32,000 nt of DNA, taken from positions 1,020,001 to 1,052,000 of the forward strand of contig NC_008698.1 of NCBI RefSeq assembly GCF_000015225.1, given 5' to 3'. This DNA comes from Thermofilum pendens Hrk 5 (lineage in GTDB: Archaea; Thermoproteota; Thermoprotei; Thermofilales; Thermofilaceae). Below the pieces are notes generated by a model. It did not search any database. It was not told the DNA's origin and saw only the letters and a program-made list of their open reading frames with translations. Shown here in pieces: positions 8,208 through 20,002 of the stretch. Made by a program: the position numbers and the translations under genes. Positions within the stretch are counted from its first letter, which is position 1, and every line of letters starts with the position of its first letter.

Positions 8208-8235
8208 GTTCGCATTGTACCGCGTCCGAGGGCTT

Positions 8236-8508
8236 ATGAAGACCCTGAAGGTGAAGGTTTCCAATAGGAGCGGTCTGCACGCGAGGCCCGCGGCGGTCTT
8301 CGTTCAGACAGCCAGGAAGTTCAAGTCTAGGATAACTGTGAGGAAGCTGGACAAGGCGGCGGACTCCAAGAACATCCTACAGCTGCTCGCGCTGGGAGTG
8401 GACATGGGCGACGAGATAGAAATTGTGGCGGAGGGCCCCGACGAGGAGGAGGCCATAGCCGAGCTGGGAAAACTGCTCACAGAGGTTCTACCGTCCATAG
8501 ACAAGTAA
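8236..8508 (+). CDS. ptsH: PTS phosphocarrier protein HPr
   Basis: 90 aa from ATG 8236. Active-site context SGLHARPAAVFVQTA with His at position 15. Alignable along its whole length to bacterial HPr. Confidence 0.9.
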   Translation: MKTLKVKVSNRSGLHARPAAVFVQTARKFKSRITVRKLDKAADSKNILQLLALGVDMGDEIEIVAEGPDEEEAIAELGKLLTEVLPSIDK

Positions 8509-8511
8509 GAG

Positions 8512-10251
8512 TTACTCGAAGACCCTAATGCCCCTTCTCTCCAGGTAGCTCCTAGCCCAAGCTCTAACCTCCCTGGACGTGCTCGCGGACTCTACGACCT
8601 CCCTAACCTCCCTCGAAGCCTCCTCGAGGTCTATCCTCCTCACTACGTACTTCACCCTCCCGACGAAGACGGGGGCTACGCTCAGCCCCTGCACCCCGAG
8701 CCCCAGTAGGGCTGGGACGGCGAGGGTTCTGCTAGCCATCTCCCCGCAGACCTCGACCTCCGCCCTCCCGCCCAGCTTGTCCACAGCGTAGGCTATCAGC
8801 CTGAGAACTGCGGGGTTAAGCTCGTCGTACACCTTGCCGACGTGCGCGCTCCCCCTGTCCGCCGCCAGGACGTACTGCGTCAAGTCGTTGGTTCCGAAGC
8901 TGACGAAGCTCAAACCCCCCTTCTCGACTAGCTCGCGGCTGAGAAGCGCGGCGGAGGGGACTTCTACCATCACGCCCAGCCTCGGGACCCTCGCTTCGAA
9001 GCCCTCGCTCCTCAGCTCCTCCTCGGCCCTCCTGACCTCCTCCGAGAGCTCCTCGACCTCCTCGACCGTCGAGACCATGGGGAACATGAGCCTCAAGTCG
9101 CCGTGGACAGCCGCCCTCAGCGCCGCCCTGAGCAGCGGCCTGAGCAGTTTATCCCTGTACTCGAGCAGTAGGCGCGTACCGCGGAGCCCCAGCTGGGGGT
9201 TCGCCTCCTTCGGGAGCTCCAGGAAGTTCACAGGCTTGTCGCCCCCTATATCGGGAGCCCTGACCGTGAGGGGCCTGCCGCCGAGCACCTCCAGACTCTT
9301 CTTGAACAGCCCGTAGAGCTCCTCCTCGCCCGGCGCCTCCTGACGCACCATGTACGCGAACTCTATCCTGAAGAGCCCTATACCGCCGCACCCGTAGCCC
9401 GGAGCGGCTCTGACCTCCTCGAGCCCCCCGGCGTTGCACAACACGTCGACGCGGCGGCCGTCCAGCGTTACGGGCTCGAGCCCCTCCTCCTTCGAGAACA
9501 GCGCTAGCATTCTGTTGTACTCCTCGGCCAACGCCCCGTAGCGTTCCTCCTCCTCGGCCGTCGGGTTGACGAGGAGAACGCCGTTCACGCAGTCCAGCAC
9601 CGCCTCGTCGCCGTCCCTGACGAGGCCAAGGTCGAGCTCTCCGGAGATCATGTAAGGCACTCCCTTGAGCCTCGCCAGTATGGATACGTGGGCCGTCAAC
9701 CCTCCTTTACGGGTCACGAGGCCCGCCAACCCCTCCTCGGCAGCTTCCAGGAACTGTATCGGGTCGAGCTCCTCCGCCACAGCGATCCTCCCGGAGTAGC
9801 CCCCGCCGGCCGTCTTCCCACCGGTCAAAACCGAGACGAGCCTGGACGCGAGGTCCCGGAGGTCCTGCACTCTGAGCGCGAAGAGCTCGCTACCGCTCTT
9901 CAGCATCTCGGCGTACTTCTCGTAGACGCTCTTCACCGCGTACTCGGCGGAGAGGGAAGAGGACTTCACGAGCTCCCCCGCCTCGGCTACGAGGGATTCC
10001 AGCATCAACAGCTGTGCGTCCACGATCTCGCGCTCCGCGGCCGGCAATACCCTCTTAAGCTCTTCCAGCCTCTCCCTAACGAGCGAGCCAGCCCGCGACA
10101 GCCTCTCGAGCTCCCCCTCGACATCGCCGACGCGCCTCTCCTCGACTAGCCCGAGCACGTCGACAGCGCGCACGACGAGTAGACGTCCTCTGGCAACCCC
10201 CTGAGAAACCACCTGGCCTCTAAACTTCAGGCTTTGAGGCACGCTAAACAA
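8512..10251 (-). CDS. ptsI: PTS Enzyme I (phosphoenolpyruvate-protein phosphotransferase)
   Basis: 579 aa. Phospho-His motif GGLTAHVSILARLKGVPY; PEP-binding motifs SFGTNDLTQY and VCGEMAS. The start is TTG 10251 or in-frame GTG 10242. Confidence 0.92.
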   Translation of the reverse strand: MFSVPQSLKFRGQVVSQGVARGRLLVVRAVDVLGLVEERRVGDVEGELERLSRAGSLVRERLEELKRVLPAAEREIVDAQLLMLESLVAEAGELVKSSSLSAEYAVKSVYEKYAEMLKSGSELFALRVQDLRDLASRLVSVLTGGKTAGGGYSGRIAVAEELDPIQFLEAAEEGLAGLVTRKGGLTAHVSILARLKGVPYMISGELDLGLVRDGDEAVLDCVNGVLLVNPTAEEEERYGALAEEYNRMLALFSKEEGLEPVTLDGRRVDVLCNAGGLEEVRAAPGYGCGGIGLFRIEFAYMVRQEAPGEEELYGLFKKSLEVLGGRPLTVRAPDIGGDKPVNFLELPKEANPQLGLRGTRLLLEYRDKLLRPLLRAALRAAVHGDLRLMFPMVSTVEEVEELSEEVRRAEEELRSEGFEARVPRLGVMVEVPSAALLSRELVEKGGLSFVSFGTNDLTQYVLAADRGSAHVGKVYDELNPAVLRLIAYAVDKLGGRAEVEVCGEMASRTLAVPALLGLGVQGLSVAPVFVGRVKYVVRRIDLEEASREVREVVESASTSREVRAWARSYLERRGIRVFE

Positions 10252-10316: not shown

Positions 10317-11483
10317 GTGGGGCTGTTGAGAGTACTCGTGAAGAACGCCCACGTTCTCACCCCTCTGGGCGACCTCGGGGTCGTCAACGTGATGGTGAAG
10401 GACGGCGTCGTCGAAGGCTTCGACGTCGAGGCTGTCCCCGATAGGGTCGTAGACGCGGAGCGCTACTACGTCGCGCCGGGCTTCATAGACACGCACATAC
10501 ACGGCTACGGAGGCGTAGACGTAACCGAAGCCAGCGCGGAGGAGATACTCGAAATGTCCGGCGGGCTCGCGGAGCACGGGGTCACGGGTTTCCTCGCATC
10601 GACGGTGGCGGCGCCCCACGAGAGACTCCTCCAGGCGTGTAGCAACGTCGCCGCGGCGAGCTCGCGGTGGAGCCCCTCAAAGGGGGCGAGGATCCTCGGA
10701 GTCCACCTTGAAGGTCCATACCTCAACCCGAAGATGAAGGGGGCTATGAACGAGCAGTACTTCCGCAAGCCTAGCCTAAGGGAGCTCGACGAGTACGTCT
10801 CGGCGTCGAGGGGCCTCGTGAGGCAGGTCACAGTAGCCCCCGAAGTCGAGGGTGCCTTGGAGTTCATAGAGGAGGCGAGCAGGAGGGGCATCACGGTGAG
10901 CGTAGGGCACACGGACGCCACGTACGAGCAGGCGCTCAGGGCGGTCGAGGCGGGAGCCCGGAAGGCGAACCACATCTTCAACCAGATGAGGGGCTTCCAC
11001 CACAGGGAGCCTGGCACCGCCATGGCGTTACTCCTAGATACGGACGTCTTCGTGGAGATGATAGTGGACTTCGTGCACCTACACCCGGCGACCGTGAGGC
11101 TTGTTTACCGCCTGGCGGGCCCCCTGAGGACAGTGCTCATAACTGACGCAGTGCGCGCGGCGGGGCTCCCCGACGGCGAGTACACCCTCGGGGGCTTGCG
11201 GATAGTGGTGAAGGAGGGGGTTTCCAGGCTGGCAGACTCGGGGGCTCTCGCCGGCTCGACGCTCACGATGGACAGGGCGGTCAGGAACATGACGAAGGTG
11301 GGTGCGAACACTCTCGAAGCCCTGACGATGGCGAGCTACACCCCGGCGAAAAGCGTAGGGGCTCTTGGAAGGGAGAGGGTCGGCCTGCTCAGACCCGGGT
11401 ACGCGGCGGACATGGTAGTCCTAGACGAGAGGCTAGAGGTTAAGAAAACGATTATAGCCGGAGAAGTCGTGTACGAGGCTTGA
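10317..11483 (+). CDS. nagA: N-acetylglucosamine-6-phosphate deacetylase (NagA/AgaA family amidohydrolase)
   Basis: 388 aa. Metal-binding motif GFIDTHIHGYGGVD, plus HLEGPY, VGHTDA and NHIFNQM, all typical of NagA. Confidence 0.88.
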   Translation: MGLLRVLVKNAHVLTPLGDLGVVNVMVKDGVVEGFDVEAVPDRVVDAERYYVAPGFIDTHIHGYGGVDVTEASAEEILEMSGGLAEHGVTGFLASTVAAPHERLLQACSNVAAASSRWSPSKGARILGVHLEGPYLNPKMKGAMNEQYFRKPSLRELDEYVSASRGLVRQVTVAPEVEGALEFIEEASRRGITVSVGHTDATYEQALRAVEAGARKANHIFNQMRGFHHREPGTAMALLLDTDVFVEMIVDFVHLHPATVRLVYRLAGPLRTVLITDAVRAAGLPDGEYTLGGLRIVVKEGVSRLADSGALAGSTLTMDRAVRNMTKVGANTLEALTMASYTPAKSVGALGRERVGLLRPGYAADMVVLDERLEVKKTIIAGEVVYEA

Positions 11484-11493
11484 GGCGAGGCGG

Positions 11494-13323
11494 ATGGGGG
11501 GCATATTCGGGGCCGTGTCTAGGAGCGGCGGGAACGTCGTCCCGCTCGTCGTGACAGGCCTCGAAAGGCTGAAGTACAGGGGCACCGACAACTCGGGAAT
11601 AGCCGTAGCCCGAGAAGGGCGCCTAGAGGTCTACAAGGACACAGGGCCCATAGACGTGGTAGCGCGCAAGCTAGGCCTCGACAAGCTCCAGGGTAGCGTA
11701 GCCCTCGGGCACACGCGCTACGCCACTCACGGTAGGCCTACAGCCGAGAACGCCCACCCCCACGTCGACTGCGGGAGACGCTTAGCGGTAGTCGGCGACG
11801 GCTCTATCTCGAACTACGAGGAGCTGAAGGACAAGGTGTTACTCAACGGGCACAGGCTAACGTCGAGGAGCGACTTCGAAGTCGTGGCCCACGTCCTGGA
11901 GGAAGCGTTCAGGGAGGGCCGCGCCCCCGAGGCTTTACCGGGAGTGCTCTCCGAGAAGCTGCAGGGCTTCTTCGCCGTAGCCTTCCTGGACGCATCCACG
12001 GGTAGCATCTACGCCGCGACGACGGGGCCGCAACTCTTCCTCGGCGCGTCCCGGGAACTCTTCCTCGTATCTACGAGCAAGTACGCTATGCACGGCTTCG
12101 CGGAGCGCTACAGGGAGGTGAGGAGGGGCGAGGTAGTCCGGGTCTCCAGCGAGGGAGTCGAGGTGTACACGGGCGCGGGGGTCGGGGGGCTCGGGGAACT
12201 ACAACCCTTGCATCTCGACCCCTCCCTTGTGGAGAAGAACGGCTACAAGCACCACATGCTCCGGGAGATATACGAGGTGCCCGAGTCCCTTATGAGGACC
12301 CTGAGCTCCGTGCAGAAGAAGTACCTCCAGCTCGCGGCAAGGCTCGTTACAGGCGCGGACAACGTCTACATAATCGCCAACGGTACGAGCCTGCATGCGG
12401 GGATGGTCGCTTCCTACTACTTCTCGGAGCTCGTAGGGGTAAACCCCGTAGTGGTCAGCGCGGCGGAGTTCCCGCTCTACTACCTCGAAAACATAGGCCC
12501 CGGCAGCCTGGTCCTAGCGATATCCCAGTCCGGCGAGACGGGGGACGTGCTCTCCTCCCTCTACGAGGCGAAGCTCCGCGGGGCGACGATACTGGGCATA
12601 ACGAACTACGTGGGCTCGCGGCTCGCCCGCCTCTCAAACCTCTACCTCCCGATAGCGGCCGGCCCCGAGCTAGCGGTTCCGGCGACGAAGACCTTTACCT
12701 CTACTCTGCTACTGCTGTACCTGGTGGCCCTCAGGGCGTCCAGGCAGGAGGGCAGGATAGACGAGGACACGCTTAACTCGAAGCTAGCCGCGGTAGCCGA
12801 GGCGGCGCGGCAACTCGGGGAGTGGCTACCCAAGGTTGACTCGGAGGCCTCCAAGGCGGCAAACGAGGTATCCGAGTGCAGGGGAGGCTACGTGGTGTCG
12901 AGGGGGCTTACCTACCCGCTCGCGCTCGAAGGGGCCTTGAAGCTGAAAGAAGCCTCCTACTTCCACGCCGAGGGGGTAGAGGCGGGCGAGTTCAAGCACG
13001 GTCCATTCGTACTCGTCGAGAAGGGCTTCGGCGTGGTATTCGTCGTACCTGTCGAGAAAGTCTCCGCCGAGGCTACCTACCCGCTAGTCGGGATGGCTCT
13101 GGAAGCCGGCGCCAAGGTCGTAGCGGTAGGCTTCGCCGGAGACCAGAGCCTGGAAGCCCTCTCGGAGAAAGGCGCCGCCGTCGTAGCCGCGCCGCCCGCG
13201 GAGAGGCACCTCGCGCCGATAGTCCTGGCGGTTCCCCTGCAGCTACTGGCCTACAGGCTGGGCGAGAGGCTTTCAAGACCAATCGATTCCCCGCGCTACC
13301 TGACGAAAGCCGTTACCCAGTGA
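11494..13323 (+). CDS. GlmS-like protein (Ntn glutaminase-like domain + two SIS domains) lacking the catalytic N-terminal Cys; candidate hexosamine-6-phosphate deaminase/isomerase
   Basis: 609 aa and colinear with GlmS. N-terminus is MGGIFG instead of MCGI(V/I)G. Isomerase-domain motifs are retained: SQSGETGD, GEFKHGP and a C-terminal LTKAVTQ. Confidence 0.85.
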   Translation: MGGIFGAVSRSGGNVVPLVVTGLERLKYRGTDNSGIAVAREGRLEVYKDTGPIDVVARKLGLDKLQGSVALGHTRYATHGRPTAENAHPHVDCGRRLAVVGDGSISNYEELKDKVLLNGHRLTSRSDFEVVAHVLEEAFREGRAPEALPGVLSEKLQGFFAVAFLDASTGSIYAATTGPQLFLGASRELFLVSTSKYAMHGFAERYREVRRGEVVRVSSEGVEVYTGAGVGGLGELQPLHLDPSLVEKNGYKHHMLREIYEVPESLMRTLSSVQKKYLQLAARLVTGADNVYIIANGTSLHAGMVASYYFSELVGVNPVVVSAAEFPLYYLENIGPGSLVLAISQSGETGDVLSSLYEAKLRGATILGITNYVGSRLARLSNLYLPIAAGPELAVPATKTFTSTLLLLYLVALRASRQEGRIDEDTLNSKLAAVAEAARQLGEWLPKVDSEASKAANEVSECRGGYVVSRGLTYPLALEGALKLKEASYFHAEGVEAGEFKHGPFVLVEKGFGVVFVVPVEKVSAEATYPLVGMALEAGAKVVAVGFAGDQSLEALSEKGAAVVAAPPAERHLAPIVLAVPLQLLAYRLGERLSRPIDSPRYLTKAVTQ

Positions 13324-13330
13324 CGCCGGA

Positions 13331-14578
13331 ATGGCGGCTATAGGGGTAGCCCTCGGAGCCGTACCCATAACCCCCTCCCCGCCCGCGGGCCACGAGCTCG
13401 CAGGCTACATAGCCAGGCAGGGGCGCTCGCTCGGAGCCCACGACGACGTCGAGGCTAGGTGCATGCTTATAGACTGGCAACCGGCAGTCCTGCTGGTAAA
13501 CCTAGACCTTCTCGGCGTCGACTCGGGGATAGTTGAAACCGTTCACAGGGTGGCGGAAAGGGAGGTCGGGGCGGTGGAGGTCGTTGTAAGCGCTACGCAC
13601 ACCCACTCCGCGCCAGCAACACTCTTCACAAACCCACTGCTGACGTTCGGGGGGAGTTTCCTGCGCCGAGACTACCTGGCATACTTCGAAGAGAGGCTCA
13701 GAATCCTTTTTCAGGACCTCGCGGGGAGGGTTGAGCGGCACGATGTACTCGTAGGGAAGGGATCCGTGAGCGGCGTGGTTACGGACAGGGAGGATCCAGG
13801 CAGAAAGGTGGACGACGAGGCACTGGTAGTCGTGTTTAAAAGGGGGCTCCAGACGGCTGGGTACCTGCTTAACTACGCGGTACACCCCACGGTTCTGGGC
13901 CCCGACAACCTGCTGATCTCGAAGGACCTCGTAGACCCCGTCCTCAGGTACCTGGGCGCGGCGTGGAAAGCGGGGGTAGGCTTGTTCCTGAATGGCGCGG
14001 CTGCAAACGTGTCTACCAGGTTTACGAGAAGGGGGCAAACATTCGAGGAAGCAGAAAGGCTCGGAAAGCTACTCGTGGACCAACTCCTCCTGTTACCTCT
14101 TAGAGGCATGCCCGGGGATGCCGCAGAGGTGGATTTACAAGCCAAAAGGGTCAGTGTGTCCTTTAGGCAACCGTCGCCGGAGGAACTGTCAGCAGCGTTA
14201 CGCGTGGGTGCAGGGTCGGCGCACCCCAGGGTGAGGGAAGCTATCCTCGAAGGCGTGAAAGCGCTGGAGAGGATAACCCCCTACCTATCCTCCGCTGGGC
14301 GCAGCGAGGTCGAGCTACGTGTTCTCAGGATAGGGTCCTTGAGGCTTCTCTTCGCGCCCTTCGAGCTCCACTCCGACTTCTCTCTACGACTGAAGCGGTT
14401 TGCCGGATCCGGTAAGCTGGGGCTCGTAGGCTACTCGGGGGAGTATCTAGGCTACCTCGTCCCAAGGGACTACGCGCTCGGCTATGAGTCTGTCATGCAG
14501 GTTCTCGACGAGGAGAGCTCGGAGAGGGTTTTAAGGGGGTTAGAGGAGGTGTTAGACTTCGATCCACTTCCCGCTTGA
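13331..14578 (+). CDS. Neutral/alkaline ceramidase-like N-terminal-domain hydrolase (putative amidohydrolase), cytoplasmic
   Basis: The pattern G-x-ITP...AGY...G(A)HDD(V)EARC(M)LI...NLDLL...SATHTHSAP resembles the ceramidase-family N-terminal domain. No signal peptide. Third gene of the nagA operon, with a 7-nt spacer. Confidence 0.5.
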   Translation: MAAIGVALGAVPITPSPPAGHELAGYIARQGRSLGAHDDVEARCMLIDWQPAVLLVNLDLLGVDSGIVETVHRVAEREVGAVEVVVSATHTHSAPATLFTNPLLTFGGSFLRRDYLAYFEERLRILFQDLAGRVERHDVLVGKGSVSGVVTDREDPGRKVDDEALVVVFKRGLQTAGYLLNYAVHPTVLGPDNLLISKDLVDPVLRYLGAAWKAGVGLFLNGAAANVSTRFTRRGQTFEEAERLGKLLVDQLLLLPLRGMPGDAAEVDLQAKRVSVSFRQPSPEELSAALRVGAGSAHPRVREAILEGVKALERITPYLSSAGRSEVELRVLRIGSLRLLFAPFELHSDFSLRLKRFAGSGKLGLVGYSGEYLGYLVPRDYALGYESVMQVLDEESSERVLRGLEEVLDFDPLPA

Positions 14579-15664
14579 ACTAGACTCGTAGACGGCGTCG
14601 AGAAGTTTTTGGCTCCGGACACCGTCACTAATTGTCGGGTGGTAGTCTTCCCTCAGCCCCGAGAGGTACTCGAAGAAAGTCTTGTAGAGTATCACGTAGG
14701 AGAACACCCAGCCCTCGAAACTCTTGGGTAGAGGCCAGGCAAGGTCGCCGTAGATCTCCTCGTAGCCCTTAACTATTTTCTCTGTCCTCCCTGTTTCGCG
14801 CCGGTAGAGGTGGAGGACGTGGGGCTCGCTTAGCGAGAACCTCGCACCACCCCTATCCCCGTAAACCTCTACCCTCATTTGCTCCTCGAAGCCCGGCGAT
14901 ACTTTCGAAGCCTCTACTGAGCCCACAGCCCCAGCCTCGTACTCCAGTACTGCGAAGCCAATATCCTCTGTATCAACCCTCCTCTTCAACCCCGTAGCGG
15001 GGTCTACCCTCTCGCCGACAAGCGTGTAAACCTTGCCGAAAACCCTCCTAACCCTCCCCCCAGTCACGTACTCAGACAAGTCGAGTACGTGCACACCTAT
15101 ATCCGCGAAAACCCCTCCACCAGCCACGCTCCTATCCATCCTCCACTCAAACGGTGTATCCTTGTAGGCATGCTTCGCGTGCGCTATAACCCCCCTGAAC
15201 TCCAAGAAGTCGCCAAGCTCTCCCCGCACGACAAGATCCCTCAAAACCTGTATCCCCGGTGTAAACCGGGATACAAGGCAAACAGCGACACTCCTACCAA
15301 CCCTCCTCGAGTATCTCTCAATCTCCTCGGCTTCCCGAGCATTAAAAGCGACAGGCTTCTCGAGCACAACGTTAAACCCCCTCTCGAGTGCCCTCAAAGC
15401 GTAGGGGTAGTGCGTGTTGTTAGGAGAAGCTATACCGACAACGTCCAAATCCTCCCCGAAGAACTCCGACTCACTCGTAGTCCACTTCTCGAAGCCATAC
15501 TGCCTAGCAAGAGCCTCCGCGTGAGCAGGAGTCCTGCTAAACACAACCCTCAACTCAACCTCGGGGAAGCCGCTCCTCCTCACAACCCTCCCAAGACTAG
15601 ACAAGGAGAATGCCTGAGCAGAAGCCGACCACCCAGAGCCTATAAGCCCAACCCTTATCCTCAT
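14552..15664 (-). CDS. Gfo/Idh/MocA-family NAD(P)-dependent oxidoreductase
   Basis: N-terminal Rossmann motif RVGLIGSGW and a conserved EKP motif (VVLEKPVA). ATG 15664 is preferred because GGTG lies 8-11 nt upstream, just after the IIB stop. Confidence 0.8.
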   Translation of the reverse strand: MRIRVGLIGSGWSASAQAFSLSSLGRVVRRSGFPEVELRVVFSRTPAHAEALARQYGFEKWTTSESEFFGEDLDVVGIASPNNTHYPYALRALERGFNVVLEKPVAFNAREAEEIERYSRRVGRSVAVCLVSRFTPGIQVLRDLVVRGELGDFLEFRGVIAHAKHAYKDTPFEWRMDRSVAGGGVFADIGVHVLDLSEYVTGGRVRRVFGKVYTLVGERVDPATGLKRRVDTEDIGFAVLEYEAGAVGSVEASKVSPGFEEQMRVEVYGDRGGARFSLSEPHVLHLYRRETGRTEKIVKGYEEIYGDLAWPLPKSFEGWVFSYVILYKTFFEYLSGLREDYHPTISDGVRSQKLLDAVYESSSSGKWIEV

Positions 15665-15673
15665 TAAGCACAC

Positions 15674-16177
15674 CTAGAATTTCAGTTTTCTAAGCTTCTC
15701 CTCGAGGTCGACGGGTTTCGGCGGGAAGTCTGGGAGCTGCTGGTAGTAGACCTTTATGCCCATGTCGAGGAGTCTTAGTAGCGCTTTGTGCTCCTCCGGT
15801 CCCACGTCGAACGTCTTCTCTACTTTGACGCGCCCAGCCCTGTAGCCCATCTGCCCCGCCAGTATCCAGTCCACCTTTACGCCGGACTTTTCGATGAAGG
15901 CTAGCACGTCGATCGGGTTTTCGAAGAGCATTAAAACCCTGGTGTTATTCCCTACGTTCCTCGCCTTGGCGGCGGCCTCCTCTACCTTTAAAACCTCCAC
16001 GGAGATGCCTGGAGGCGCCAGCATTATTTGCAACTGCTTCAAGGCTGGGTTTCCCGCTATTTTATCGTTGACAACCCATATGGCGTTTGCCTCGAACTTC
16101 TTCGTCCACGCGGCCGTTACCTGCCCGTGGATAAACCTGTCATCTATACGGATAAAGATGTTCTGCTTTTTCTCCAT
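15674..16177 (-). CDS. PTS mannose/fructose/sorbose-family IIB component
   Basis: Signature IRIDDRFIHGQVTAAWTK contains the phospho-His. ATG 16177 is preceded by GGTGGGTGAT. The ORF-track TTG 16192 is the alternative start. Confidence 0.88.
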   Translation of the reverse strand: MEKKQNIFIRIDDRFIHGQVTAAWTKKFEANAIWVVNDKIAGNPALKQLQIMLAPPGISVEVLKVEEAAAKARNVGNNTRVLMLFENPIDVLAFIEKSGVKVDWILAGQMGYRAGRVKVEKTFDVGPEEHKALLRLLDMGIKVYYQQLPDFPPKPVDLEEKLRKLKF

Positions 16178-16218
16178 ATCACCCACCTGCAAGCTTTTTG
16201 GATAACGGTCACCTCTTT

Positions 16219-16659
16219 CTAAAAATCTTTTCCGGAGGGACCCTCTTCCTTTTTACCCGTTAACTCCCGGAGCCCTGGACCTACGAATGCCCTTACACCC
16301 TCCATGCCTGCGCTTTTTGCTCCAAGAACGAGCGACTCCAGGTCTTCGTCCTGGGAGGATAGGAGCTGTATAACCATTGCCATGTTGAAGCCTGTAATCA
16401 CCGCTTTCACCTTGGATTCCTGTAGGAGCATGAGTGCCGCCTTGCTTGGTGTCCCCCCGAAGAGGTCCGCTAAGACTATAGTGTCCCCGTCAACCCTGCT
16501 CGCAAGCTTCTCGTAGTAGTTTTCGAAGCTTTCACCTTCCAGGAGCTCGACGCAGTCGGTGACTTCTTTCACGGAGACCCCTAGGATCATCGCGACTGCC
16601 TCCCGCATGGCACAGCCTAGCCCTCCGTGCGAGGCAAACACTACTCTCAAGGCTCTCAC
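16219..16659 (-). CDS. PTS mannose-family IIA component
   Basis: 146 aa with N-terminal VVFASHGGLG (phospho-His context of EIIA-Man). GTG start in a GTGA overlap with the upstream gene's stop. Confidence 0.85.
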   Translation of the reverse strand: MRALRVVFASHGGLGCAMREAVAMILGVSVKEVTDCVELLEGESFENYYEKLASRVDGDTIVLADLFGGTPSKAALMLLQESKVKAVITGFNMAMVIQLLSSQDEDLESLVLGAKSAGMEGVRAFVGPGLRELTGKKEEGPSGKDF

Positions 16660-17540
16660 CTCAAGTGGGACATCGCGACACGCCTATATGTGTGTCTAAC
16701 ACCCCTCACCGCTACCGATAGTTCGAGTATGTTCTCAGGCACGGCGACGCCCATCCTGTACCCGGAGTCTCCTATGTGGTGTATGTCGCAACCGCATGCC
16801 TTCGAGGCCAACCCTATCTTCCTGATTACGGAGCTACTCGAGCCTTCCTGGGAAGTGCCGATCGCGCACATGAGGAGAGCGTCGTACTTGTAGACCAGCC
16901 GCGCCACGGCGCTTACTCTTTCCGGGAGAGACCCGGGGACGGTGTAAGGGGCAGGCACGACTACGCCGTCGGCGCCCGCCGCTAGCACGTCCTCTATCAG
17001 TTTCAGGTCGTAGATGTCCTCGCCGCGAATCCCCCCGCTGTGCATCTTACCCCCGAACACCAGTGCTCTCTCGCCGACTATGCGCTTCGAAGCTTCGACC
17101 CCCTCCCTGATCCTGGACCACGTTACGCCGAGACCGGGGTTACCAGTCACCACTATGAGTCTAGAACCCTGCTCGATGCTCTTTTCGATGCTTCGCGGCG
17201 ACAGCCTCCTCCCCTCGGGTATAACGCCCGGATCCACGGGTTCAAGGTTATTTCCAACGAATCTCTGCAGGAACTCGGAGAGATCCGAGATGCTCGCGTA
17301 CTCCTCCGGCACCCCCTCTACCCTGGGGTTAAAAACGTCGTACATGTTCAACAGGACCATGTCCGCCCCGAAGGACGCCGCTAGCTCTACGTTGGAGACT
17401 CCATCCACGAGTGGAGGAGACTGGACGACGACTTCCGCGCAGATAGTCCTACCCTCGGAGCTTACGACGGAAGACTTGAAGTCTTTAGCTGAAATCTTTG
17501 CAAGCTCCCTACCACTCAGATCTAATACTCTTTTCGCCAT
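16656..17540 (-). CDS. Uncharacterised protein leading the IIA-IIB-oxidoreductase operon; possibly a phosphate-binding (beta/alpha)-barrel enzyme
   Basis: 295 aa from ATG 17540. The longer ORF to 17681 would run through the divergent promoter and the IIC-IID start. Gly-rich FGGKMHSGGIRGE and IGTSQEG resemble phosphate-binding loops. No family recognised with confidence. Confidence 0.6.
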   Translation of the reverse strand: MAKRVLDLSGRELAKISAKDFKSSVVSSEGRTICAEVVVQSPPLVDGVSNVELAASFGADMVLLNMYDVFNPRVEGVPEEYASISDLSEFLQRFVGNNLEPVDPGVIPEGRRLSPRSIEKSIEQGSRLIVVTGNPGLGVTWSRIREGVEASKRIVGERALVFGGKMHSGGIRGEDIYDLKLIEDVLAAGADGVVVPAPYTVPGSLPERVSAVARLVYKYDALLMCAIGTSQEGSSSSVIRKIGLASKACGCDIHHIGDSGYRMGVAVPENILELSVAVRGVRHTYRRVAMSHLR

Positions 17541-17597
17541 TCCGGGTGAACCTGAAACTAAGCCCACCGAATTAAGTTTTCGTCGTAAAGCACAATC

Positions 17598-17628
17598 TTT
17601 ATAAATAGGTTGGTAAAAGCCTATTTGT
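17598..17628. promoter_or_regulatory. TATA box TTTATAAA plus overlapping inverted repeat ATAAATAGG-N10-CCTATTTGT abutting the IIC-IID start codon
   Basis: TATA at 17598-17605 is 24-31 nt upstream of ATG 17629. Inverted-repeat arms are at 17601-17609 and 17620-17628 (7/7 core, 8/9 extended). Confidence 0.45.
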
Positions 17629-19233
17629 ATGGCGACCATAGGCCCACTCGAGGTAGGGCTTCTAGGACTGCTAGCCTTCATCTTCGGACTGGACTACATC
17701 TGGGTAACACCTCTCGGAATCTGGCGCCCCGTGGTCGCGGGGACCCTCACAGGCATTATTCTAGGAGACCCCTTGACAGGGCTACTCGTAGGCTCGCTAC
17801 TAGAGTTCGTGTTCGCTGGGCTATTCACGATAGGAGGCGGGACCGTTCCGGAGGCTGCTAGCGGGACGATAGCCTCCGTGGTTGTCGCCGTTACTACGGG
17901 GTTAAAGCCTGAGGCGGCGGTACCGCTGGCTATACCCGTAGCAGTGCTTACAATGAACTTGGAGATAGTTGTCAGGTCTTTCGACGCGGTGTTCACGCAC
18001 TGGGCTGACAGGGAGATAGAGAGGGGGAACTACGGGGCAATCCCCCTGATAAACATTCTCGGCGCGGTACCATGGGGGCTCAGCAGGGCAATACCTATCT
18101 GGCTATTCGCGGGAGCCTTAGCCATAAACCCACAGGCCGTTAAAGCGGCGATAGATGCCCTCCAAGTGGTTCAAATCGGACCCTTCACGGTGCGCTTCTG
18201 GGACGCGATGGCAGTCGCGGGCGCCGTACTCCCAGCGCTCGGTGCCGCCATTCTAATGAAACTCATGATCTCGCGTAGGAACGTGATGTTCTTTGTACTC
18301 GGCTTCGCTCTCGCAGCCTACCTGAAGCTAAGCCTCCTGGCGATAGCCCTCGTAGCGGGATCCATAATCTTCGCTATCTACTACTTCACCCACCGCGAGG
18401 CATTGGAGGCTGGAGCCGCGGTAACCACAGCGGCACCACCCACCGGCAAGGCAACGACGAAGGACTTCATAAGGTGGTTCGGGGTCTCATGGTTCATACA
18501 GTCGTCCTGGAACTACGAGAGAATGATGGGGACAGGCTTCGCGCACGGTATGCTTGAAATAGAGAAGAAGCTTAGAAAGGACCCGGAGGAGCTGAAGTCC
18601 TGGATGAGGCTACACAACGAGTTCTACAACACCGAGCCCCACCTCCACAACGCCATTTACGGGATGGTGATATCCCTAGAGGAACAGGGGGCGGATCAGG
18701 ATACGATAAGAGGAGTCAAAACAGCGCTTATGGGTCCATTCGCAGGGCTCGGAGACTCGATAATGTGGTTCACGATCCTCCCGATAGCGTTCCTCTTAGG
18801 AGCCTCGCTGGGAGCCCAGGGCAACATACTCGGCCCGGTAATAGCGCTACTGATATGGATACCAGTCTCCTGGGCCGTTAAGTACTACACGCTCGTCTAC
18901 GGGTACAAGTACGGCTTATCCCTGGCGGAAATACTCAAGGGAGAAGTCCTGAAGATATTTAGGGAGGGTATAGCAGCCTTCGCGATGGCAATGGTCGGAG
19001 GAATCGCGGCGACATACGTCAGGGCGACAACCCCGATAGTACTGGCCCAGTACGCTGGTCACGCCATTAAGCTACAACCAGTACTGGACCAGTTGATGCC
19101 ATCCCTGCTCCCACTGCTCTTCACCCTCTACGCCTACTGGCTAATAAAGGTCAAAGGCTACAGCTACGGTAAAGCCGTCGTCATACTCTTCCTCACGGCA
19201 TTCATACTCGCACTGCTAGGAGTACTCGGTTAA
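17629..19233 (+). CDS. PTS mannose-family IIC-IID fusion permease
   Basis: 534 aa. The N-terminal half is a IIC-like polytopic domain. An Ala/Thr/Pro linker spans 18391-18468. The C-terminal half carries IID motifs (FIQSSWNYERMMGTGFAHGM, LHNEFYNTEPHL). Confidence 0.88.
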   Translation: MATIGPLEVGLLGLLAFIFGLDYIWVTPLGIWRPVVAGTLTGIILGDPLTGLLVGSLLEFVFAGLFTIGGGTVPEAASGTIASVVVAVTTGLKPEAAVPLAIPVAVLTMNLEIVVRSFDAVFTHWADREIERGNYGAIPLINILGAVPWGLSRAIPIWLFAGALAINPQAVKAAIDALQVVQIGPFTVRFWDAMAVAGAVLPALGAAILMKLMISRRNVMFFVLGFALAAYLKLSLLAIALVAGSIIFAIYYFTHREALEAGAAVTTAAPPTGKATTKDFIRWFGVSWFIQSSWNYERMMGTGFAHGMLEIEKKLRKDPEELKSWMRLHNEFYNTEPHLHNAIYGMVISLEEQGADQDTIRGVKTALMGPFAGLGDSIMWFTILPIAFLLGASLGAQGNILGPVIALLIWIPVSWAVKYYTLVYGYKYGLSLAEILKGEVLKIFREGIAAFAMAMVGGIAATYVRATTPIVLAQYAGHAIKLQPVLDQLMPSLLPLLFTLYAYWLIKVKGYSYGKAVVILFLTAFILALLGVLG

Positions 19234-19292: not shown

Positions 19293-19979
19293 TCAGCTAT
19301 AGCTCATACGGTTAACTATCTCCTCGATTACTCTTACCACGCAGTCCCCGTACTTCTCTTCGCAAACTATGTCCGCTTTCTCCTTGACTTCTCGCGCGGC
19401 GTTCCCAACGGCCACCTTGACCTTCGACTTTTGGAAGAGCGGTAGGTCCGTGCGGCTATCTCCGATGCTTACTATCATGGCGTCGCTCCACCCAGTCAGC
19501 TTGAGAAGCCTCTCGAGACCCACACCCTTATCGATGCCCCTAGGCATGAACGCATACGTCCGCGAGCCGACCTTCGCGAGGTCGTACCCGAAGGCTCCCA
19601 GCTTCTCCCTAGCAACTCTCTCCGCTACCTGGAGTTCCTCCTCGTCGACGTAGTACAGCACTCTCCCCTCGTTTACAGCCGGTACGCTTTCCCTGAGTAC
19701 TGCCCGGAGCCTATCCCACCCCCACGGCTTGAATATAACCTCCAATGCTTCGGGCAACGCTACGACTGAGCCCACCTCCAGTATGAGCGCGTCTACGAGC
19801 CAGAGCTTACCCACGAACCTCGATATGTCCTCCAGGGGTCGCGCCGTCGCTATAACGAACTTGAAGGGGTACTTTGCTTTGAGCTCTTCGAGCTTCTCCA
19901 AGACGCGGGGCTCCACCTCTCTGTTCTCCTCGGCCAGCGTACCGTCGTAGTCGGACACCACGATCCACTCGCCGCTCAT
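19293..19979 (-). CDS. HAD-superfamily (IIB/Cof-like) phosphatase, probable sugar-phosphate phosphatase
   Basis: Motif I VSDYDGTL and motif IV GDSRTD. Size and cap region fit HAD-IIB. ATG 19979 is adjacent to GTG 19982. Confidence 0.8.
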   Translation of the reverse strand: MSGEWIVVSDYDGTLAEENREVEPRVLEKLEELKAKYPFKFVIATARPLEDISRFVGKLWLVDALILEVGSVVALPEALEVIFKPWGWDRLRAVLRESVPAVNEGRVLYYVDEEELQVAERVAREKLGAFGYDLAKVGSRTYAFMPRGIDKGVGLERLLKLTGWSDAMIVSIGDSRTDLPLFQKSKVKVAVGNAAREVKEKADIVCEEKYGDCVVRVIEEIVNRMSYS

Positions 19980-20002
19980 CACGTATGCTACGCGTGGAAC
20001 AG

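Follow-up and report, generated by a model that had tools for sequence, protein, structure and literature searches.

The window analysed here is a 32,000-nucleotide stretch of the Thermofilum pendens Hrk 5 genome (contig NC_008698.1, positions 1,020,001 to 1,052,000), and all coordinates below refer to it. It contains an island of mannose-type phosphotransferase system (PTS) genes, and the question raised by the locus is what the product of one of them does: the first gene of the permease-associated operon (16656..17540, minus strand, 294 aa), which encodes a predicted (beta/alpha)8 barrel enzyme. All the other genes of the island can be assigned at least to a family. Our analyses indicated that this is a real gene and that its product is an archaeal member of DUF7916 (PF25509), a catalogued but uncharacterised family of barrel enzymes whose genes have repeatedly been recruited beside PTS permeases of four families, Glc/NagE, Lac/Cel, Man and Bgl. 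On balance we lean towards an intact cytoplasmic TIM-barrel enzyme which acts on a PTS-delivered phospho-sugar and feeds NagA, the N-acetylglucosamine-6-phosphate (GlcNAc-6-P) deacetylase, and a putative GlmS-like deaminase.

Family membership and conservation

The first-pass annotation, made from the nucleotide sequence alone, had placed the protein in no known family, a statement that is out of date. The protein matched the Pfam profile DUF7916 over its full length (353 bits, the cut-off being 27; E 1.1e-105), with residues 6-294 aligned to profile positions 1-296, and a genome-level profile search returned the same assignment. Since all eight genomes of the genus carry the gene and the homologues are well conserved at full length, the gene is considered real; the Thermofilum and Infirmifilum homologues share 62-76% identity across 100% of the length. 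An exhaustive HMMER search yielded 813 DUF7916 family clusters. No NCBIfam model matched the Thermofilum protein, a PDB sequence search with the single protein found no match, and a full-text literature search for 'DUF7916' found no publication that mentions the family by name.

Alignment of 53 diverse members (about 45% identity) revealed 37 invariant columns, all kept in the Thermofilum protein. Across 113 sequences 18 residues were universal, namely R4, G30, R31, E52, N65, N134, P135, G164, K165, G189, P196, E232, K247, G250, D252, G257, D258 and G280, and these were likewise all present in the Thermofilum protein.

The open reading frame (ORF), on the minus strand, starts with ATG at 17540 and ends with TGA at 16658-16656; it codes for 294 residues, one fewer than the 295 given in the first-pass annotation, which had placed the ORF and its operon-leading position correctly; the three peptide segments that it quoted were all found in the protein. 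The frame is open upstream as far as 17681. We take 17540 as the true start because all homologues in the 53-member alignment start at an MxKRxLD motif and the longer frame would enter the divergent IIC-IID gene.

Predicted fold and active site

The AlphaFold2 model obtained from the 53-member alignment is a (beta/alpha)8 barrel (pLDDT 95, pTM 0.93) with eight strands at residues 32-38, 61-65, 94-100, 128-131, 160-164, 192-196, 222-227 and 253-256, in agreement with the barrel that had been guessed from the sequence. Placed from the predicted secondary structure, the invariant polar residues lie mostly at the C-terminal ends of the strands, that is, on the catalytic face (E36, N65, N98/E100, T132/N134, K165/H167, T200, T229-E232 and H255/D258), and a smaller set, E29, R31, D60, K247 and D252, is on the opposite face. 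Two glycine-rich loops are seen in the model, GTSQEG after strand 7 and IGDSG after strand 8. The segment CAIGTSQEG, earlier compared with the phosphate loops of ribulose-phosphate-binding barrels, thus follows strand 7, the usual place of such a loop.

Comparison with solved structures gave generic barrels and no specific family. Foldseek against the PDB returned TIM-barrel matches with a TM of about 0.5. The wide VIA-align search gave a flat list descending from Z 17.8, for the homocysteine-binding domains of MetH and BHMT, to 14.2, in which ribulose-phosphate-binding barrels, class I and class II aldolases, the phosphoenolpyruvate mutase/isocitrate lyase group, DHPS and others were mixed; MJ1099 and HPS were among the top neighbours, alongside unrelated barrels. 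No solved structure or known superfamily stood out in either search, and the ESM Atlas yielded no usable match.

Three leads were dropped. The homocysteine-binding domains of MetH and BHMT bind zinc via cysteines, and DUF7916 has no invariant cysteine. A pyridoxal phosphate barrel of the alanine racemase/YggS type, prompted by the ddl-murF neighbours described below, was rejected on an alignment without a conserved lysine on strand 1. Membership in glycoside hydrolase clan A, prompted by an NLEP motif together with E232, was not supported, the NLEP motif being on strand 3 and not on strand 4. Glycoside hydrolases were not recurrent among the Pfam matches of the family, a single weak GH3 match being found in one of the 53 members, a result that would also be expected of a new glycoside hydrolase family.

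Genomic context in bacteria

Species-representative genomes were scanned and more than 576 DUF7916 loci were obtained, from which the best 80 were kept; a DUF7916 ORF was called in 72 of them. The ORFs of each locus were called, the neighbours clustered and the recurrent clusters named by Pfam and NCBIfam, and the counts in this paragraph refer to genes within five genes of DUF7916. Some PTS gene was present in 34 of the 72 loci. The most frequent was a Glc-family (NagE-type) EIICB, found in 29 loci and directly adjacent to DUF7916 in 18, followed by EIIA-Glc (16 loci), NagA and a GntR/UTRA regulator (14 loci each), NagB (13) and a BglG-type antiterminator (9). At least one of NagA and NagB was present in 14 loci. 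A GFO oxidoreductase, CutC and MurQ were each found in 6/72 loci. A Cof-type HAD gene was found in 5/72 by the stricter profile count, and BLAST clustering placed such a gene beside DUF7916 in ten loci of archaea and some bacteria. Typical operons had the order nagA-nagB-gntR-EIICB-DUF7916 or antiterminator-EIICB-EIIA-DUF7916. All nine EIICBs tested exceeded the curated score of TIGR01998, a model specific for N-acetylglucosamine (GlcNAc).

NagA, scored as a TIGR00221 match above the curated cut-off, was present in 47 of 48 genomes carrying DUF7916, Njordarchaeal and other archaeal metagenome-assembled genomes (MAGs) included, the exception being one MAG; with the same cut-off it was found in 8 of 14 control genomes. 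DUF7916 itself was in none of these 14 controls, which include Escherichia coli K-12 and Bacillus subtilis, and is for that reason an accessory to GlcNAc catabolism and not a core step of it. A role as a replacement of NagA is ruled out by the presence of NagA in 47/48 genomes. The association with PTS and amino-sugar genes, which the first-pass annotation had proposed from the single locus, was supported in bacteria and in archaea.

DUF7916 is common in the Lactobacillales (174 of the 401 genomes sampled), with up to three copies. The commonest neighbour in 40 loci of this order was a Lac/Cel-type EIIC, whose cluster occurred in 20 of them, and Lac/Cel PTS genes lay at most three genes from DUF7916 in 18/40. 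These loci also hold EIIB, EIIA, regulators of the GntR, ROK, RpiR or PRD type, and DUF3284; small DUF3284 genes accompanied a Lac/Cel-type EII and DUF7916 in loci L134, L146 and L151. Glycosylasparaginase and an M20 peptidase were seen in three loci of the order and CutC in two. There was no glycosidase among the annotated recurrent neighbour families of the Lac/Cel operons of Lactobacillales. In the bacterial loci examined, a GFO gene was noticed near DUF7916 in only one, L142.

Other neighbours recur independently of these operon types. CutC-family barrel genes were found repeatedly by DUF7916 and a GlcNAc-type or ega-like PTS (L003, L056, L058, L059, L064, L066, L144 and L149). DUF7916 adjoins ddl, and also murF, in four unrelated lineages (L029, L036, L041, L046, L054 and L055); in Serratia aquatilis the ddl ORF and the start of DUF7916 share 14 nt, and in an Erysipelothrix MAG DUF7916 is immediately preceded by a phosphoglucosamine-mutase-like gene. 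The ddl/murF and phosphoglucosamine-mutase-like neighbours may reflect a link to cell-wall amino-sugar metabolism.

Archaeal loci and evolutionary origin

All five archaeal loci, namely those of the Thermofilum window, a Desulfurococcales MAG, an unclassified archaeon, Candidatus Njordarchaeum and a MAG labelled Nitrososphaerota, combined DUF7916 with a Man-type IIC-IID, a IIB and a GFO oxidoreductase; the GFO proteins of L001, L002, L004 and L011 belonged to one BLAST cluster, number 19. Some of the archaeal loci additionally carried a HAD gene and a ceramidase-like gene. The latter encodes a cytoplasmic ceramidase-like amidohydrolase (weak PF04734 match) and was linked to PTS genes and DUF7916 in three archaeal genomes (window 13331-14578, L001:9227-10525 and L002:4118-5386); the genes of L001 and L002 fell in BLAST cluster 60. 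Among 120 genomes of the class to which T. pendens belongs, DUF7916 was present in 8/8 genomes of the genus and in one other genome, and in all eight of the genus it is divergent from the IIC-IID gene.

A quick maximum-likelihood tree indicated that the Thermofilum clade is sister (SH-aLRT 93) to the NagE-linked proteins of Thermoanaerobacterium, Caldanaerobacter and Tepidanaerobacter, while a second archaeal DUF7916 clade was placed elsewhere among Bacillota. The tree came from a short search, has long branches and is indicative only. It suggests at least two transfers of DUF7916 from bacteria to archaea, and the Thermofilum copy indicates that the PTS island entered archaea together with the DUF7916 enzyme, probably from thermophilic Clostridia.

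A divergent member in Listeria and a fusion with HPr

The forward serogrouping primer for lmo0737, whose sequence is given beside that gene name in 22 published papers, had one match, in one of the 401 genomes (G151). The match lies inside the single DUF7916 gene of that genome (E 2e-97; L160:6337-7269) and the reverse primer was found 691 bp downstream of the forward one in the same ORF. The gene order, LacI / ribulose-phosphate 3-epimerase - RpiB - DUF7916 - EIIBCA - GH1, is that of the lmo0734-0739 D-allose cassette. Judged from these sequence matches, lmo0737 of Listeria monocytogenes, the PCR marker of serogroup IIa, belongs to DUF7916 as a divergent member. A mutant deleted for lmo0737 grew more slowly on D-allose, a PTS sugar, but its growth was not abolished (PMC5893763). 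The Listeria protein is 31% identical to that of Thermofilum and lacks nine conserved residues, E36, N98, E100, T132, H167, Q231, H255, R282 and H283; its substrate probably differs from that of the main group.

A fusion of DUF7916 with HPr came from the exhaustive HMMER search. The metagenomic protein P0158 (428 aa) carries a complete HPr domain, with its active-site His motif kept, and a complete DUF7916 domain, joined by an Ala/Gly-rich linker, and the fusion is present in at least two data sources. A homologue search for longer fused DUF7916 proteins found none. Four other apparent fusions (P0175, P0236, P0139 and P0220) combine incomplete domains and appear to be artefacts of assembly or gene calling. 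K165 is replaced by arginine in the fusion protein and in P0089, which argues against a Schiff-base lysine at this position.

Proposed function

We infer that the substrate of the DUF7916 enzyme is an N-acetylhexosamine-6-phosphate derivative and its product GlcNAc-6-P or a close relative. In Thermofilum the neighbouring mannose-type PTS would import and phosphorylate a sugar, and the DUF7916 enzyme would take up the phosphorylated product and convert it to GlcNAc-6-P, which would then pass to NagA and on to the GlmS-like deaminase. Acid/base catalysis may be provided by E52, N65, N134, K165, E232 and D258, all invariant and on the top face, while the loops that follow strands 7 and 8 (GTSQEG and GDSG) would bind the sugar phosphate. 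In the archaeal clusters the GFO oxidoreductase may first oxidise the sugar and so activate the substrate, by analogy with pathways that combine a dehydrogenase with a barrel lyase.

As to the reaction itself, we tentatively favour the removal of a glycosidic partner or other substituent from a GlcNAc-6-P derivative, as a doubtful first preference. This preference is given because DUF7916 is the sole nameable enzyme-like gene in the Lac/Cel-type loci and because the antiterminator-EII-enzyme layout copies that of known phospho-glycosidase operons. Since the annotated recurrent neighbours included no glycosidase, DUF7916 would by analogy sit where a phospho-glycosidase normally stands in Lac/Cel operons. 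A slightly less favoured second choice is the epimerisation or isomerisation of a hexosamine-6-phosphate. The more far-reaching proposal, that DUF7916 founds a new cytoplasmic class cleaving phosphorylated GlcNAc-containing imports, is speculative to the same degree as this second choice; the substrates would be chitobiose-6'-phosphate, other 6-phospho-N-acetylglucosaminides, or 3-O-substituted GlcNAc-6-P, the last by elimination. If it is true, the 'glycosidase' that many PTS operons of Firmicutes and PTS-bearing archaea lack, be they of Lac/Cel, NagE or Man type, would be DUF7916.

Several observations weigh against a PTS-fed pathway enzyme of this kind. The lmo0737 phenotype may not be transferable to the main group, nine residues being different. 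About half of the loci have no nearby PTS gene, and in the Enterobacteria Citrobacter, Dryocola and Atlantibacter DUF7916 is an isolated gene flanked by purB and phoPQ. Within the Thermoprotei, a Man-type IID occurs in three genomes that lack DUF7916, and one genome with DUF7916 lacks IID. The gene is also dispensable for GlcNAc catabolism in E. coli K-12 and B. subtilis, which do not carry it. Against cleavage in particular, the adjacent NagE-type permeases score as transporters of the monosaccharide GlcNAc, no glycoside hydrolase was among the 50 best structural neighbours, and the barrel, being compact, is more like the small metabolic barrels that bind phosphate.

Relation to NanE and alternative functions

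The alternative to which we give most room, while considering it unlikely, is a functional analogue of NanE, that is, a 2-epimerase of N-acetylmannosamine-6-phosphate or another N-acetylhexosamine-6-phosphate that supplies NagA with GlcNAc-6-P by removing and restoring the proton at C2 of the sugar in its open-chain form. NanE (PF04131) was the sole recurrent secondary Pfam match of the family (17/53 members, best E 4.8e-6, the Thermofilum protein not among them), and the best PDB match of the DUF7916 family profile was the Clostridium perfringens NanE 4UTU (E 0.03 over 60 residues in a shifted register). The operon nagA-nagB-gntR-EIICB-DUF7916 needs exactly one extra step ending in GlcNAc-6-P, and the near-constant company of NagA in DUF7916 genomes points the same way. 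However, the matches cover single beta-alpha-beta units: strands 6-7 of DUF7916 are paired with NanE strands 4-5, and a second fragment pairs helix 3/strand 4 with NanE strands 7-8 (NanE numbering estimated from sequence), two registers that, as aligned, cannot both be homologous. When the DUF7916 profile was compared by hhalign with a profile of six true NanE proteins from genomes also carrying DUF7916, the probability was 11% over 29 columns. NanE was likewise outside the 50 best structural neighbours, in the flat list of generic TIM barrels, and true NanE (E < 1e-50) was present in 17 of 47 DUF7916 genomes, which weakens the idea of a simple NanE replacement. The neighbouring EIICBs score as GlcNAc-specific, and in Lactobacillales the partners include Lac/Cel-type PTS, a type not known to carry monosaccharide amino sugars. 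The kinship with NanE suggested by the first-pass annotation was not supported by global profile similarity, and the N-terminal resemblance on which it had drawn was recovered in no alignment. Epimerisation at C2 as in NanE is possible, as convergent chemistry at most, and is not favoured.

The other suggestion made from the sequence, a sugar-phosphate aldolase acting on a downstream ketose or keto-acid phosphate, like LacD, GatY and DgaF in PTS operons, is very improbable. Class I aldolases are among the structural neighbours (1OJX, an archaeal fructose-bisphosphate aldolase; 2QJG, ADH synthase; KDPG/KDPGal aldolases; LsrF), but the list is flat and mixes many barrel superfamilies. An invariant Schiff-base lysine as in the class I aldolases (DeoC/FbaB, KDPG) was not found: K165, after strand 5, is the sole conserved top-face lysine and is the residue replaced in the two homologues mentioned above, and K247 is at the bottom, N-terminal face of the barrel as placed from predicted secondary structure. 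In addition, NagA and the deaminase already reach fructose-6-phosphate, so the pathway needs no aldolase, and no positive evidence for one emerged. A PTS-coupled protein outside the pathway, for example a target or partner of HPr that is phosphorylated on an invariant histidine and controls or relieves the sugar-phosphate load, is improbable too, if less so than an aldolase. It would accord with the HPr-DUF7916 fusion, with the pairing of the gene with four unrelated PTS permease families and different sugars, with the many stand-alone copies and with a Listeria mutant that was only slowed and not blocked. Against it, only one fusion lineage was found, HPr genes are plain neighbours in some operons so that the fusion may be incidental, a catalytic face so dense in invariant polar residues is characteristic of enzymes, and lmo0737 lacks H167, H255 and H283. 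An enzyme acting on a PTS-delivered phospho-sugar remains the reading that we prefer.

Organization of the PTS island

The DUF7916 gene is followed on the minus strand by the gene for a mannose-family PTS IIA (16219..16659; PF03610, E 3e-14). The GTGA overlap reported between the two is real, the GTG at 16659-16657 overlapping the DUF7916 stop TGA. A second in-frame start candidate for IIA is TTG at 16650, 5 nt past a GGTGA (16660-16656) that may be read as Shine-Dalgarno-like, which would make TTG 16650 an equally plausible start; whichever is used, the two genes are tightly linked. Next on the same strand are a sorbose/mannose-family PTS IIB (15674..16192; PF03830, E 7e-39) and a GFO/IDH/MocA NAD-dependent oxidoreductase (14552..15673; Pfam assignment), whose start abuts the IIB stop and whose best NCBIfam match was levoglucosan dehydrogenase, far below the curated cut-off.

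On the other side, an 88-bp divergent intergenic spacer (17541..17628) separates the DUF7916 operon from the fused mannose-family IIC-IID permease gene on the plus strand (17629..19233; PF03609 and PF03613). The divergent orientation described earlier was thus confirmed, and Pfam supported the identities given to the neighbours. A Cof-type HAD sugar-phosphatase-like gene (PF08282) lies at 19293..19982 on the minus strand. Three genes on the plus strand code for NagA (10317..11483; Pfam, and TIGR00221 above cut-off with E 8.8e-91), the GlmS-like protein with GATase and SIS domains (11494..13323; Pfam) and the ceramidase-like amidohydrolase (13331..14578; PF04734, E 1.6e-9). PTS Enzyme I (PF02896, PF05524 and PF00391) is encoded at 8512..10251 on the minus strand and HPr (PF00381, E 1.4e-30) at 8215..8508 on the plus strand.

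The G+C content was 53-58% in the genes for PTS IIA, IIB, IIC-IID, GFO and DUF7916, 60% in the window and 64% in those for Enzyme I, NagA and the GlmS-like protein. The lower values are consistent with a later acquisition of the permease-enzyme module (14552-19233).

Significance and comparison with known systems

DUF7916 is widespread, occurring in more than 570 species, and includes a Listeria serogrouping marker, without an assigned reaction in any member. The family is tied to the uptake of amino sugars that derive from chitin, cell walls and host glycans, so that knowledge of its reaction would fill a gap in the pathway maps of gut and pathogenic Firmicutes. The Thermofilum copy, which is thermostable, single-copy and fully conserved, is convenient for structural and substrate work.

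In length, predicted fold and invariant residues the Thermofilum protein is like the bacterial DUF7916 members. It shares with lmo0737 the position of a DUF7916 gene directly beside a PTS permease gene, and differs in its archaeal host, its mannose-type PTS and the co-conserved GFO oxidoreductase. NanE (PF04131; PDB 4UTT/4UTU), a small phosphate-binding (beta/alpha)8 barrel of the kind predicted for DUF7916, has weak local sequence similarity to it and acts on a PTS-derived N-acetylhexosamine-6-phosphate upstream of NagA, comparable to the place in the pathway proposed for DUF7916; there is, however, no global homology and the NanE catalytic motifs are unaligned.

Pairs of a GFO dehydrogenase and a TIM-barrel lyase carry out oxidative glycoside cleavage, as in the levoglucosan LgdA/LgdB and Bacteroides BT2158-type systems, and archaeal DUF7916 is likewise linked to a GFO protein. 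The known oxidative-cleavage lyases, however, are xylose-isomerase-like barrels and not DUF7916, and the bacterial DUF7916 loci examined rarely have a GFO gene. With MurQ, MupG (GH170) and the GH1/GH4 phospho-glycosidases, DUF7916 has no sequence similarity and no specific structural similarity, but the operon logic is shared: an antiterminator or repressor, EII genes and one cytoplasmic enzyme, which in those systems turns the phosphorylated import into GlcNAc-6-P or a hexose-6-phosphate.

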